Assembly (NCBI GenBank): GCA_963720545.1 | Contig: OY970399.1 | Coordinates: 3,040,001-3,104,000 of the forward strand | From: an uncultured Acidobacteriota bacterium | Lineage (GTDB): Bacteria; Acidobacteriota; Vicinamibacteria; Fen-336 | Direction: 5' to 3' | DNA: 64,000 nt | Position numbers and translations under genes: made by a program | The notes under the pieces: model-generated | Told to the model about the DNA's origin: nothing | Database searches by the model: none | Seen by the model: only the letters and a program-made list of their open reading frames with translations | Shown here: one piece after another, positions 42,888-45,580 of the stretch | How positions within the stretch are numbered: position 1 is the stretch's first letter | How the letters are laid out: each line of letters opens with the position of its first letter

Positions 42888-42965
42888 GTCGGGTTGGTGG
42901 CAGTGTAGCCCGAGACGCCATAACATCCCGCCTGTTCCCACATGCAGCCGAAGGAGATTGTTCAC

Positions 42966-44357
42966 ATGACGATCCGCAAGCGCACCCGCGCGCTCAGTGC
43001 CCTGCTGCTCCTGGCGATGGCGCCACTGGTCTTCCCGGCGGCGCCGAAGAAGGCCGCGGCGACGGCACCGAGCGGGCCCGAGATGCTGCCGCCGCTGCGC
43101 GAGCAGACCGAGATGCGCCAGGAATGGCTGAAGCTGCGGCTCGAGCGGGTGCTGCCGGCGCTGATGCGCAAGCACGGCGTCGCCATGTGGATTGTCGTCT
43201 GCCGCGAGTACAACGAGGATCCCGCGTGGTTCTCGCTCGCCTCGCCGTGGGTGATGCACGCGCGCCGCCGCACCATCCTGTTGTTCTACGACCGCGGCGG
43301 CGACCAGGGCATCGAGCGGCTGGCGCTCGGCGGCGGCTCGAACGGCGGCCTCTACGAGATCTACCGCGATCCCGAAGCGTCGGGCCGCGAGCTCTATGGC
43401 CAGGGCCAGTGGCAGACGCTGCGCAAGGTGGTCGACGAGCGCAAGCCGAAGAACATCGCGCTCGACATCTCGCAGACGCATGCGTTCTCCGACGGTCTAT
43501 CGGTGGGCGAGTGGGAGCAGCTCGCGGCGGCGCTCGGCCCGTGGACCGCGAAGGTGGTGCGCGCCGAGGAACTGCCGCTCGAGTACATCGAAACGCGCAT
43601 CCCGGAAATGCTGCCGACCTACAAGAAGATGATGGCGATCGTGCATGCGCTGATCGCGCGCGCGTTCTCGAACGAGGTCATCACTCCGGGCAAGACAACG
43701 AACGTGGACGTCGAGTGGTGGCTGCGCCAGCACGTCAACGACCTGGGCCTCGGCGAGTGGTTCCCGCCGTCCGTCAACATCCAGCGTCCCGCGAAGGGCG
43801 CCGGCGCGTTCGGCGCGACCGCCGAGCACCAGGCGACCGTGATCGAGCGCGGCGACCACCTGCACACCGACTTCGGGATCTACCAGATGGGCCTCGCGAC
43901 CGACACGCAGCACGTGGGCTACGTGCTGAAGGCGGGCGAGACCGACGCGCCGGCGGGCCTGAAGCAGGCCTTGCTCAATTCGAACAGGATGCAGGACATG
44001 GCGGTGGCGCGGCTCAAGCCCGGCCTCTCGGGCAACGACGTGCTGCTCGCGGTGCTCGCCGACATGAAGGCTGCCGGCATCGAGGGCAGCATGTATTCGC
44101 ATCCCATCGGCGACCACGGCCACGGCGCCGGGCCGATGATCGGCTTGTGGGACCGGCAGGAACCGATTCCCGGACGCGGCGAAGTGGCGGTGCTGCCGAA
44201 CTCCTGGTACTCGATCGAACTGCAGGCGACCACCGCGGTGCCGGAGTGGAACGGCCAGCGTGTGTCGTCGCAGCAGGAAGAGGACGTCTCGATCGATGCG
44301 GACGGCAAGGTCTCGTGGGTCCTGGAGCGGCAGACCAGATACCACCTGGTCAAATAG
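42966..44357 (+). CDS. Exported M24 family metallopeptidase (Xaa-Pro aminopeptidase-like)
   Basis: Signal peptide; GDHLHTDFG, TDTQ, HPIG.HGHGAG, SIEL, EED; AAGGAG SD. Confidence 0.85.
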   Translation: MTIRKRTRALSALLLLAMAPLVFPAAPKKAAATAPSGPEMLPPLREQTEMRQEWLKLRLERVLPALMRKHGVAMWIVVCREYNEDPAWFSLASPWVMHARRRTILLFYDRGGDQGIERLALGGGSNGGLYEIYRDPEASGRELYGQGQWQTLRKVVDERKPKNIALDISQTHAFSDGLSVGEWEQLAAALGPWTAKVVRAEELPLEYIETRIPEMLPTYKKMMAIVHALIARAFSNEVITPGKTTNVDVEWWLRQHVNDLGLGEWFPPSVNIQRPAKGAGAFGATAEHQATVIERGDHLHTDFGIYQMGLATDTQHVGYVLKAGETDAPAGLKQALLNSNRMQDMAVARLKPGLSGNDVLLAVLADMKAAGIEGSMYSHPIGDHGHGAGPMIGLWDRQEPIPGRGEVAVLPNSWYSIELQATTAVPEWNGQRVSSQQEEDVSIDADGKVSWVLERQTRYHLVK

Positions 44358-44402
44358 CGAAAGAGTCGTGAGTTGTTAAAGGCGACACGCTGCATTTTCG
44401 CC

Positions 44403-44431
44403 TTGACGCGCGGGAGGGTGCGGCCGATATT
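44403..44431 (+). promoter_or_regulatory. Putative sigma70 promoter for an intergenic RNA
   Basis: TTGACG (44403-44408), 17 nt, GATATT (44426-44431). Confidence 0.6.
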
Positions 44432-44437
44432 GAACTG

Positions 44438-44645
44438 ACGGCGCCGCATCGTACGGAAGTGAGGTTTGATGGAGGGTACTCCGCCGGGCCGTAACTAGCG
44501 GCGAGCGATCGCCGCACCGCACAAACCGTCGATACAGGGAAGCGAACAAAGGACGCGCGTGCAACGCGCGCCGGCCCACCGCGTCTGAGGTTCGGGCCAA
44601 AACAAGACGTGAAAAGGCCAGGTCTTTTCGACCTGGCCTTTTTTT
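44438..44645 (+). ncRNA. Candidate structured non-coding RNA (~205 nt), family not recognised
   Basis: No credible ORF; bounded by promoter and intrinsic terminator; several hairpins (one with a GCGA GNRA loop), a long-range helix and a predicted H-type pseudoknot at 44573-44610. Confidence 0.6.
44612..44645 (+). terminator. Rho-independent terminator, probably bidirectional
   Basis: AAAA-GGCCAGGTC-TTTTC-GACCTGGCC-TTTTTTT. Confidence 0.88.
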
Positions 44646-44650
44646 AGCTG

Positions 44651-44707
44651 TCGACGGATGGGTAGCCATCGACGGATGGGCTGTCTCGTCCCCGTCCCAT
44701 CCGTCGA
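44651..44707. repeat. 12-mer present twice in direct and once in inverted orientation
   Basis: TCGACGGATGGG at 44651-44662 and 44669-44680; CCCATCCGTCGA at 44696-44707. Confidence 0.8.
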
Positions 44708-44718
44708 ATTCCGTTGTC

Positions 44719-44818
44719 CGTTCCCCGAGCGCTTGCGACAACGTTCGGTCGTTTCGTTCTCCGAGCGCTTGCGACAAGGTTCGTTAGGTTCGTTCCCCAG
44801 GCGCTTGCGACAACGTTA
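44719..44818. repeat. Three tandem 36-nt repeats immediately downstream of the RRM gene stop
   Basis: Units start at 44719, 44755 and 44791; invariant core GCGCTTGCGACAA within a ~28-nt conserved block, plus 8 variable nt. Confidence 0.88.
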
Positions 44819-45508
44819 TTCGTCGTAATCGTCGGTATCGTCTTCGACGGCCGCCTTGGGACGCTTGCGATCGAAGGTGCGGCCGCCCTCGTCGCGCTTG
44901 CGCTTCTCGAAGTCGCGGCCGGTCTTGTTGCCGCCGCCGCTCGAGCGGCGCTTCTGGCTGGCAGCGGTGCGCGCGTTGAAGTCGGGCGCGTCGGACGCCG
45001 AGGGTCCGGTGCCGAAGGGCCGCGGCGAGAACGGACGCTGGCCATAACCGGCGCCGCCACCGCCGCCACCAGGACGCTGGCCGTAACCACCGCCCCCACC
45101 GCCCGGCCGCTGTCCATATCCACCGGCACCGCCACCGCCGCCAGGGCGCTGACCGTAGCCGCCGCCGCCACCGCCGCCGGGACGCGGACCGCGGTCGCGC
45201 GCACCGCCGAAGTCGCCGCGCGGTGCGAAGCTGCCAGGGGCTCCGCCCTCGGGACGCGGCGGGCGGTTCTCGGCGAGGTTGACGCGCAGCGGACGACCGC
45301 GCAGGTCGGTGCCGTTCAGCATGTCGATGCTCTTCTCGGCCGCTTCGCGCTCCTGGAATTCGACGAACGCGAATCCGCGCGGACGCCCCGTTGCGCGATC
45401 GGTGGGAATCTTCGCGTCGAGGACTGTCCCTGCGGCACCGAAAGCCGTGAGCAGCTCCTCACGGGTTACTTCGTAGCTGAGGTTTCCGACGAAAACCTTG
45501 TTCGAAAT
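44816..45508 (-). CDS. RRM-domain RNA-binding protein with Gly-rich GYGQRP repeats; probable AUU start
   Basis: RNP2 VFVGNL, RNP1 RGFAFVEF, LNGTDLRGRPLRVNLA; four GYGQRP repeats in poly-Gly; ATT codon 6 nt after a GAGAGG SD. Confidence 0.88.
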   Translation of the reverse strand: MSNKVFVGNLSYEVTREELLTAFGAAGTVLDAKIPTDRATGRPRGFAFVEFQEREAAEKSIDMLNGTDLRGRPLRVNLAENRPPRPEGGAPGSFAPRGDFGGARDRGPRPGGGGGGGYGQRPGGGGGAGGYGQRPGGGGGGYGQRPGGGGGGAGYGQRPFSPRPFGTGPSASDAPDFNARTAASQKRRSSGGGNKTGRDFEKRKRDEGGRTFDRKRPKAAVEDDTDDYDE

Positions 45509-45580
45509 GGCATGCCTCTCTAGGCTGGGCGCGACTCTAACAGAAACGAATGACTGTGCAAGCTTAGACTTACAGCCACA

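Follow-up and report, generated by a model that had tools for sequence, protein, structure and literature searches.

The window, that is, the whole 64,000-nt stretch of DNA analysed here, contains a short, strongly structured transcription unit with a promoter and a terminator of its own, and no gene follows it on the same strand. The question raised by this locus is what such an RNA does. A preliminary description proposed an independently transcribed non-coding RNA, possibly of an undescribed class, with long-range helices and a 3′ pseudoknot. Part of that proposal is upheld below: the RNA is a structured transcript of its own of ~208 nt, it is not a cis riboswitch, and it has no Rfam match. 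The non-coding part is not upheld, nor are the pseudoknot and the long-range helices as defining features. Comparison of homologous sequences indicates that the RNA is probably not non-coding and that its conserved core is a Shine-Dalgarno (SD) site plus a micro-ORF of nine codons under codon-level constraint. The features are collected in Table 1.

Table 1. Coordinates of the features of the locus (positions in the window) and of the related Myxococcota loci.
Feature	Position	Strand	Basis or remark
M24 (Xaa-Pro-type) metallopeptidase gene, upstream neighbour	42942..44357	+	Pfam PF00557
Sigma70-type promoter, -35 TTGACG / 17 nt / -10 GATATT	44403..44431	+	sequence scan
Stand-alone transcript, ~208 nt	44437..44645	+	metatranscriptome contigs; strand inferred from promoter and terminator
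Long-range helix 44448-55/44527-33	44448..44533	+	probability 0.80-0.88
SD-like site GAGGT	44461..44465	+	GGAGGT in most homologues
Hairpin pairing part of the SD and start codon with the Thr-Pro-Pro codons when untranslated	44463..44490	+	probability 0.98-1.0
Micro-ORF MEGTPPGRN-stop, nine codons	44469..44498	+	SD-led; codon-level conservation
Motif E-x-T-P-P-G, Pro codons 44481-44486; putative pause/abort site	44472..44489	+	87 copies
Hairpin H2, GNRA loop	44498..44515	+	starts +15 from first base of second Pro codon
GCGC-type hairpin	44554..44570	+	conserved in Acidobacteriota copies
Last hairpin before the terminator; loop could pair with 44605-44610, this copy only	44573..44598	+	
Intrinsic terminator, stem 44612-42 and U tract	44612..44645	+	minimum-energy fold
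RRM protein gene with Gly-rich tail, convergent neighbour	44816..45571, start approximate	-	Pfam PF00076, ORF end
Micro-ORF leading a 50-residue protein, Myxococcota	L344, L345, L354, L355 (1634-1783), L357, L362, L368	+ (L355)	

The transcription signals proposed in the preliminary description are borne out, and all the sequences that it quoted lie where it placed them. The promoter is the sole sigma70-like site in 43500-45500 (shuffled sequences: 0.2 ± 0.5). TTGAC occurs within 300 nt upstream in 135 of 146 copies of the family, and GATATT at the -10 spacing is retained in the Acidobacteriota consensus. The terminator stem with its U tract is present in the minimum-energy fold, yet it is missed by a simple terminator scan. 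As A and U tracts flank the stem, the terminator is probably bidirectional.

A discrete RNA of ~200 nt had been predicted, and contigs of that length are found. Metatranscriptome contigs of 209 and 210 nt, from two runs of one study (X1 and X3), cover 44437-44644/5 with zero differences, from 6 nt past the -10 box to the U tract; contigs as such cannot prove the ends, strand or level of a transcript. They closely match the predicted transcription unit. The RNA is real and expressed. Runs X5 and X6, from two other studies, have near-identical contigs across 44454-44600, and words of the stretch are present in 14 public runs, 13 of them recorded as RNA. Contigs were compared in four runs, all chosen by means of this stretch itself; across the 3.3 kb compared, near-identical contigs are confined to the element in all four. 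The flanking genes have no near-identical contig in these RNA runs, which says nothing on their expression.

As had been proposed, no same-strand gene follows, the next gene being the convergent RRM gene. The M24 gene is syntenic upstream in some relatives, and other copies have different upstream genes. The interval from the terminator to the end of the RRM gene contains a 36-nt unit repeated 2.8 times (44719-44817). It is REP-like, and an inverted-repeat-like stretch (~44650-44707) precedes it.

The extensive pairing claimed for the RNA is confirmed: 44438-44645 folds with -94.9 kcal/mol (z -4.4), and 0 of 200 shuffled sequences are as stable. The three hairpins that had been put forward (44471-82, 44498-515 and 44554-70) have pair probabilities of 0.88-1.0. 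The long-range helices fared unevenly. The helix 44448-55/44527-33 is predicted in this copy, where it is apparently a particular feature: the consensus fold has no equivalent, and the length of the 5′ UTR ranges from 18 to 224 nt among Acidobacteriota copies. The proposed GGTTTG/CAAACC helix has a probability of 0.00 and does not form, because GGTTTG pairs with 44485-90 (0.98). The H-type pseudoknot is possible by sequence in this copy, which has 7 nt of loop-linker complementarity. The 25 other parsed Acidobacteriota copies have at most 5 nt (8 more are unparsed), and the loops of their last hairpins are mostly 3-9 nt. As a family feature the pseudoknot is rejected, since the pairing is not conserved and most other loops are short. 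The general layout of the family is the motif, then a chain of hairpins, then the terminator.

The suggestion that the RNA may belong to no known class holds in the databases searched. At the gathering threshold, no Rfam family matches the window, and the best match by E-value (0.029) is terminator-driven and far below that threshold. Among 20 homologous loci, Rfam 15 gives 2 matches at E ≤ 0.5, both below the gathering threshold. The host has its 6S RNA (C1:458564-458741) and tmRNA (C1:660282-660641) genes elsewhere, and neither class is found in the window. A sponge of the CsrB/RsmZ type was rejected: the host has no CsrA match, and the folds have no array of GGA loops. No description of the family was found in Rfam or in the literature searched. 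The motif is absent by word search from the main text of two motif-discovery papers (PMC8632094, PMC11109978), the supplements of which could list it. The element apparently represents an undescribed RNA family of soil bacteria.

Homologues were sought in the Acidobacteriota, as the preliminary description had advised, and beyond, and were found in both. BLAST of the whole element against 61 genomes gave matches in 13, with just 2 homologues besides the window's own genome; the remaining matches were rRNA-like or chance. These two are distant and have the promoter, a 30-nt core and the terminator in common with the window's copy. A first narrow pattern found the element in 3 of 401 genomes of the class, and in relatives the region following the M24 orthologue yielded more copies. 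When all genome contigs were scanned with a pattern, 61 loci were obtained, of which 18 were real by inspection (by title, 8 Vicinamibacteria/Acidobacteriota, 9 Rhizomicrobium/Alphaproteobacteria/Proteobacteria and 1 Rokubacteria), and a scan of metagenomes gave 66, of which 57 were real and many redundant.

Sequence-only models, in which the codons were not fixed, were then used. In the window's order, 40 of 78 genomes scored, and 25 of the best 30 loci were real; the element is present in 28 of 59 genomes of the window's family, three of them added from synteny or a later search. In the order of the alphaproteobacterium G401, 52 of 101 genomes scored, with 47 of 50 inspected loci real, in 46 genomes. 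In the Rokubacteria-type phylum of G402, 48 of 101 genomes scored, and the motif is present in all of the best 30 loci (26 parsed by script, 4 by eye). In one Myxococcota class, 8 of 151 genomes carry the element. Wider samples, taken with strict filters and a short model and so to be read as ‘not found’ rather than ‘absent’, gave matches in 9 of 151 genomes for the Acidobacteriota phylum, only two family members being real, and in 7 of 151 for the Alphaproteobacteria class, only the seed genome being real. The models were trained on copies containing the proline pair (PP), and copies lacking it would be missed. In viral contigs, 4 and 8 pattern matches were obtained, none with the architecture of the element on inspection. 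As far as these samples go, the distribution is patchy. One gene copy per genome is the rule. One copy from another order of the window's class (L332, genome G126) resembles Rokubacteria copies in its 3′ part, a hint of transfer or of an earlier origin.

Across Vicinamibacteria, Rhizomicrobium-type Alphaproteobacteria and Rokubacteria, 146 distinct copies show the motif [E/D]-x-[T/S/G/A/C]-P-P-[G/D/E/A/N/K]; they are kin to one another, so that copy counts overstate independence. A micro-ORF is the favored reading of this core because synonymous changes occur, first bases are those of start codons only, length changes are in frame only, and stops come early. In the 4.09 Mb host genome, the sole short SD-led ORF carrying the family motif is the one at 44469-44498. 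The spacing from GGAG to the start is 5-10 nt in 119 of 121 copies, and the start codons of 121 copies are ATG (114), TTG (5) and GTG (2). An ATG at SD distance was also sought regardless of frame. Of 146 copies, 135 have it in the frame of PP, 3 are mixed, 8 lack an ATG, and 0 have it solely out of frame. Ten copies have another spacing between start and PP (9, 15, 18 or 21 nt), all differing by multiples of 3; the PP position in this test came from an in-frame search, and the copies are related, so that the evidence is strong yet does not amount to ten independent events. A copy found later (L338) has an in-frame insertion of two codons. An in-frame stop within 15 codons is present in 33 of 34 Acidobacteriota copies, versus 12 and 10 in the other frames, and in 28 of 30 Rokubacteria-type copies, versus 16 and 5. 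In Alphaproteobacteria, the stop test cannot tell the frames apart: of 82 copies, 56 have such a stop in frame, 53 in +1 and 25 in the third frame.

Codon usage was examined in the 87 copies found by model or synteny, the codons of which were not pre-set by a search pattern. Counting from the prolines, residue -3 is E/D in 83 of 87 and residue -1 is T/S/G/A/C in 87 of 87. Residue +1 is G in 39, D in 25, E in 11, A in 9, K in 2 and I in 1, and N follows PP in three copies of the pattern-search set. All four Thr codons (ACT, ACG, ACA and ACC) are used, or Ser, Gly, Ala or Cys instead, and Glu is GAA or GAG. The second Pro codon is CCG in 79, CCT in 4 and CCC in 4. The first is only CCA or CCG (60 and 27), although CCA accounts for 8% of the first prolines in PP pairs of the host genome. 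ACT is the commonest Thr codon of the motif, yet it makes up 4% of Thr codons in the host. The core is thus also constrained in part at the RNA or codon level, and pairing with the start region would explain both the CCA/CCG and the ACT bias. When the copies are folded as free RNA, the SD is largely paired, frequently to the Thr-Pro codons. In Alphaproteobacteria, this core helix (SD/start against Thr-Pro-Pro) is invariant or changed on one side, never on two, and covariation therefore says nothing for it.

Taken together, we regard it as very likely that the micro-ORF is translated and under selection. That the PP motif was selected to slow or abort the ribosome is likely. The motif falls among the first 5-10 codons, PP being reached after 3-7, and what follows is free: the peptides have 7-60 residues, several end 1-2 residues past PP, and two near-identical copies (L134 and L146) differ by a frameshift directly after PPG. 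In 47 of 121 copies, in Alphaproteobacteria, the codon next to PPX is ATA, a rare Ile codon, and it often makes a stop in the +1 frame; it is possibly a second slow codon or a frameshift trap. One alphaproteobacterial genome (G479) has two copies (L232 and L250), the second of which has PPI and is not expected to pause. In Rokubacteria-type copies (L275-L304), the stop codon usually lies inside a self-complementary GCTAGC loop, and an ACTCC anti-SD is present just upstream of the SD.

Behind the motif, the hairpins are conserved as structure. The covariation that the preliminary description called for is present there and lacking for the pseudoknot pairing. In 36 Alphaproteobacteria copies, the helix equivalent to H2 has two-sided changes at 7 of 8 pairs, and the first two hairpins behind the motif at 14 of 15, above all 500 shuffles and the slid controls. 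The H2 loop is GCGA here and GCAA in a near relative, the GNRA type being kept. With the first base of the second Pro codon as reference, the onset of the first helix falls between +13 and +18 in 104 of 146 copies, versus 177 of 723 shuffles; in general, the covarying hairpin begins 13-17 nt from that codon. The median is +14 in Acidobacteriota and +17 in Alphaproteobacteria; Rokubacteria have a median of +13 and a mode of +16. Where 5-7 codons precede PP, the helix stays at +12 to +15, so that the hairpin follows the prolines and not the start codon. The sole feature common to the four phyla is a micro-ORF, by the codon evidence, that carries a diproline motif and is followed by a hairpin, the distance between motif and hairpin being fixed.

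These features suggest a mechanism akin to that of MgtL. A ribosome would initiate at the strong SD and, 3-7 codons later, meet Pro-Pro. If short of EF-P activity, prolyl-tRNA or stability (Mg2+, ABC-F factors), it would pause or abort there, as on MgtL-type leaders. Each RNA would hold one ribosome, because a paused ribosome still covers the initiation region. PMC7282821 places the mRNA channel up to 11 nt past the first base of the P site, and with the second Pro in the P site H2 would therefore lie just ahead of the ribosome. A paused ribosome would stop just short of H2, whereas fast read-through would melt H2 and end at the nearby stop. The state of translation would then set the fold, stability or availability of the RNA, and the micro-ORF would serve as a sensor of elongation capacity. 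In Vicinamibacteria and Alphaproteobacteria, with no target gene behind, the output would be the RNA itself or the RNA-ribosome complex. We give a probability of about 0.45 to this reading of the sequence, i.e., an EF-P-sensitive, MgtL-like pause/abort micro-ORF on a stand-alone structured RNA, with regulation through the RNA as its output.

Work on pausing in E. coli bears on this proposal. PP is mostly followed by G, D or E, which are pausing types. PMC4140641 lists PPD and PPN among EF-P-dependent pauses only; acidic A-site residues stall whatever precedes them, PPG pausing depends on context, upstream residues modulate PP pauses, and PPA, PPK and PPI pause weakly or not at all. Against the pause model, some copies carry PPA, PPK or PPI. 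Such pause motifs normally lie inside long proteins, whereas here a dedicated micro-gene conserves the motif and nothing else. Of 5 carriers tested, all 5 have EF-P. Its loop type differs between carriers, so no link to one EF-P class can be drawn. The host genome has two EF-P paralogues (C1:133117-133284 and C1:2473773-2473949; L308 and L311); we take one to have a PGN-type loop and the other an extended Arg-containing loop like that of EfpL (names partly after PMC12856214).

The comparison with MgtL of mgtA (E. coli and Salmonella) is the closest. Both ORFs are very short, with acidic residues and prolines directly after the start, and trouble in translation is the likely signal in both. PMC11162784 and PMC12856214 describe an N-terminal EPDP destabilization motif in MgtL (residues 2-5), and the former also reports that at least three D/E/P in a six-residue N-terminal window destabilize E. 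coli ribosomes. By that MgtL-type count, 145 of 146 peptides have at least three D/E/P among six N-terminal residues; the test is weak, because PP and one Glu already suffice. MgtL differs in that it controls a downstream transporter gene, whereas most copies here have no same-strand target and the RNA ends at its own terminator; furthermore, the motif here is E-x-T-P-P-X, and a hairpin keeps a constant spacing to the prolines. A candidate target gene on the transcript itself, as in MgtL, is seen in the 7 Myxococcota copies and may exist in Rokubacteria. To summarize, the element is probably a variant of the proline/acidic leader kind, in an apparently undescribed stand-alone form.

In RAPP/RAGP arrest peptides (SecM, ApdA, ApdP), a long nascent chain ends in the proline pair, with an Arg two positions ahead of it. 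They resemble the present motif in that prolines come after a small residue where arrest occurs. Here, in contrast, residue -2 is D/E/N/S/G/V and others, never R (0 of 87), no long tunnel-spanning segment is present, and no secretion gene lies downstream. A RAPP-type arrest peptide was rejected on the lack of Arg and on the 3-7 codons before PP. Pausing stem-loops such as the dnaX and HIV frameshift hairpins likewise place a hairpin at the mRNA entry channel, and inhibit at 11-12 nt past the first base of the P site (PMC7282821). H2 lies at 12-16 nt with the second Pro in the P site and would therefore be met one or two codons later. Unlike the dnaX and HIV sites, the family has no conserved slippery site or shifted ORF that could be seen.

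Four other explanations were weighed. In the first, the RNA acts on the ribosome pool: an abundant, nuclease-resistant RNA would keep one 70S ribosome paused at Pro-Pro, or would drain EF-P or prolyl-tRNA by repeated drop-off. Ribosome rescue requires trimming of the mRNA to the ribosome edge, and a hairpin at the leading edge would block both 3′ trimming and rescue, so altering translation globally without any target mRNA or protein product. In favor of such a decoy or trap, conservation is limited to the promoter, the SD, the motif, the hairpin distance and the terminator; the promoter is near consensus, and PP near the start permits one ribosome and makes a peptide too short to be retained. 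In favor too are the restriction of near-identical contigs to the element across 3.3 kb in four runs (themselves chosen by the stretch), the convergent next gene in 30 of 34 Acidobacteriota copies (by a rough heuristic), and the peptidyl-tRNA drop-off at N-terminal prolines without EF-P that is described in PMC8934632. On the other hand, 4 of 5 carriers have HPF, a hibernation factor, which speaks against the RNA as an HPF replacement; one gene copy per genome is the rule; and the Myxococcota form resembles a regulatory leader. We consider this explanation unlikely. If true, it would mean a stable RNA dedicated to capturing one ribosome and tuning global translation, which would be a categorically new kind.

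The peptide itself could be the product, a chain of 7-30 residues acting through E-x-T-P-P-G/D on a protein or on the ribosome, with hairpins that merely stabilize the mRNA. Conservation at the amino acid level fits, as do the Rokubacteria peptides, nearly all of 15-16 residues, and leader peptides can work in trans, as peTrpL does (PMC12612679). The tail, however, is free in length, sequence and frame, several peptides ending 1-2 residues past PP, and a free peptide does not account for a hairpin distance that tracks the prolines. This explanation is doubtful as well.

Less probable still is a cis attenuator or an orphaned leader, in which pausing controls read-through into, or translation of, the next gene, the target being mostly lost or hit antisense. 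The gene behind the element matters here. By the same rough heuristic, the next gene of Alphaproteobacteria copies is convergent in 27, on the same strand in 15, unresolved in 12 and beyond the available flank in 28; in Rokubacteria-type loci, it is on the same strand in 14, convergent in 3, unresolved in 11 and short of flank in 2. A C39-like peptidase gene lies on the same strand behind 20 of 30 Rokubacteria-type loci, where the last hairpin often has no U tract, and this agrees with attenuation. Against it, in about half of these peptidase loci the peptidase frame starts far downstream, with a small convergent gene between. The convergent neighbors differ between clades; one of them, found in about 25 Acidobacteriota loci, encodes a 568-residue protein with no Pfam match (L070:638-2341, + strand). 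In addition, the window's copy has no competing antiterminator by inspection, its contigs stop at the terminator, and the strong conservation is not what is expected of a relic.

An argument for a leader comes from the Myxococcota. In 7 of 151 genomes of one class, a true uORF arrangement is found: an SD, an 8-codon ORF and a hairpin lie 121-148 nt before the gene of a conserved protein of 50 residues, which has a hydrophobic stretch near its N terminus and a tail rich in His. That gene is followed by a long hairpin, a terminator-like stem and, in several loci, a tRNA-like gene. The protein belongs to no Pfam family; it has 16 unnamed relatives, the Atlas leads are weak (0.76), and it was not found with this query in 5 other carriers of the element. 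When the copies were folded with the ribosome footprint blocked, the downstream SD opened in 0 of 7. The Myxococcota copies support a leader-type role, the output there probably being the downstream 50-residue membrane protein.

The weakest alternative, a purely non-coding RNA in which the SD/AUG/CCRCC core is an RNA motif (an anti-SD seed, a sponge or a protein site) and the ORF is accidental, draws on the first Pro codon restricted to CCA/CCG with ACT favored, compatible with a UGGA/UCCR helix, and on the strong covariation of the downstream helices, and is nonetheless very improbable given length changes in frame only, first bases of start codons only, third-position variation, early stops and the lack of a CsrA or Hfq match in the host genome.

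That last point also bears on how the RNA could act. CsrA (PF02599) and Hfq have no match in the host genome, which is 94.8% complete, and the standard sRNA routes are thereby weakened. No single-stranded 3′ seed common to the clades was found either, so that an output by base pairing is unsupported. SgrS, SR1, AzuCR and Spot42 are dual-function sRNAs, a class that the present family may resemble: a transcript of its own is supported and the ORF is under selection, so that a translated small ORF is probable. The attenuator sRNA rnTrpL, with its peptide peTrpL, is similar in being a short terminated RNA with a small ORF, where RNA or peptide may act in trans; it differs in that it comes from the leader of a biosynthetic operon and base-pairs with mRNAs, with Hfq in E. 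coli (PMC12612679), whereas the RNA described here has no operon behind it, no conserved seed and no Hfq match in the genome.

What sets the pause/abort reading apart from precedent is the setting. The proline/acidic leader peptides known so far act on the gene that follows them. In this family, a signal of that kind would form the core of an RNA that stands by itself, in soil bacteria of four phyla, most of them uncultured, with a conventional uORF in one lineage only, which offers a natural test of what a paused ribosome does when no gene lies downstream. Candidate outputs are sRNA control, release of a micropeptide, and a sink for ribosomes, EF-P or tRNA-Pro. The locus also carries a caution: a clean-looking ncRNA can be built round a nine-codon ORF.

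Finally, the long 5′ UTRs of four Acidobacteriota copies (L022, L042, L044 and L338) carry many short CGT/ACGT repeats, like a multi-site protein sponge, and CGTA is enriched 4.8-fold there over the flanks. The convergent RRM protein may be a partner of these repeats.
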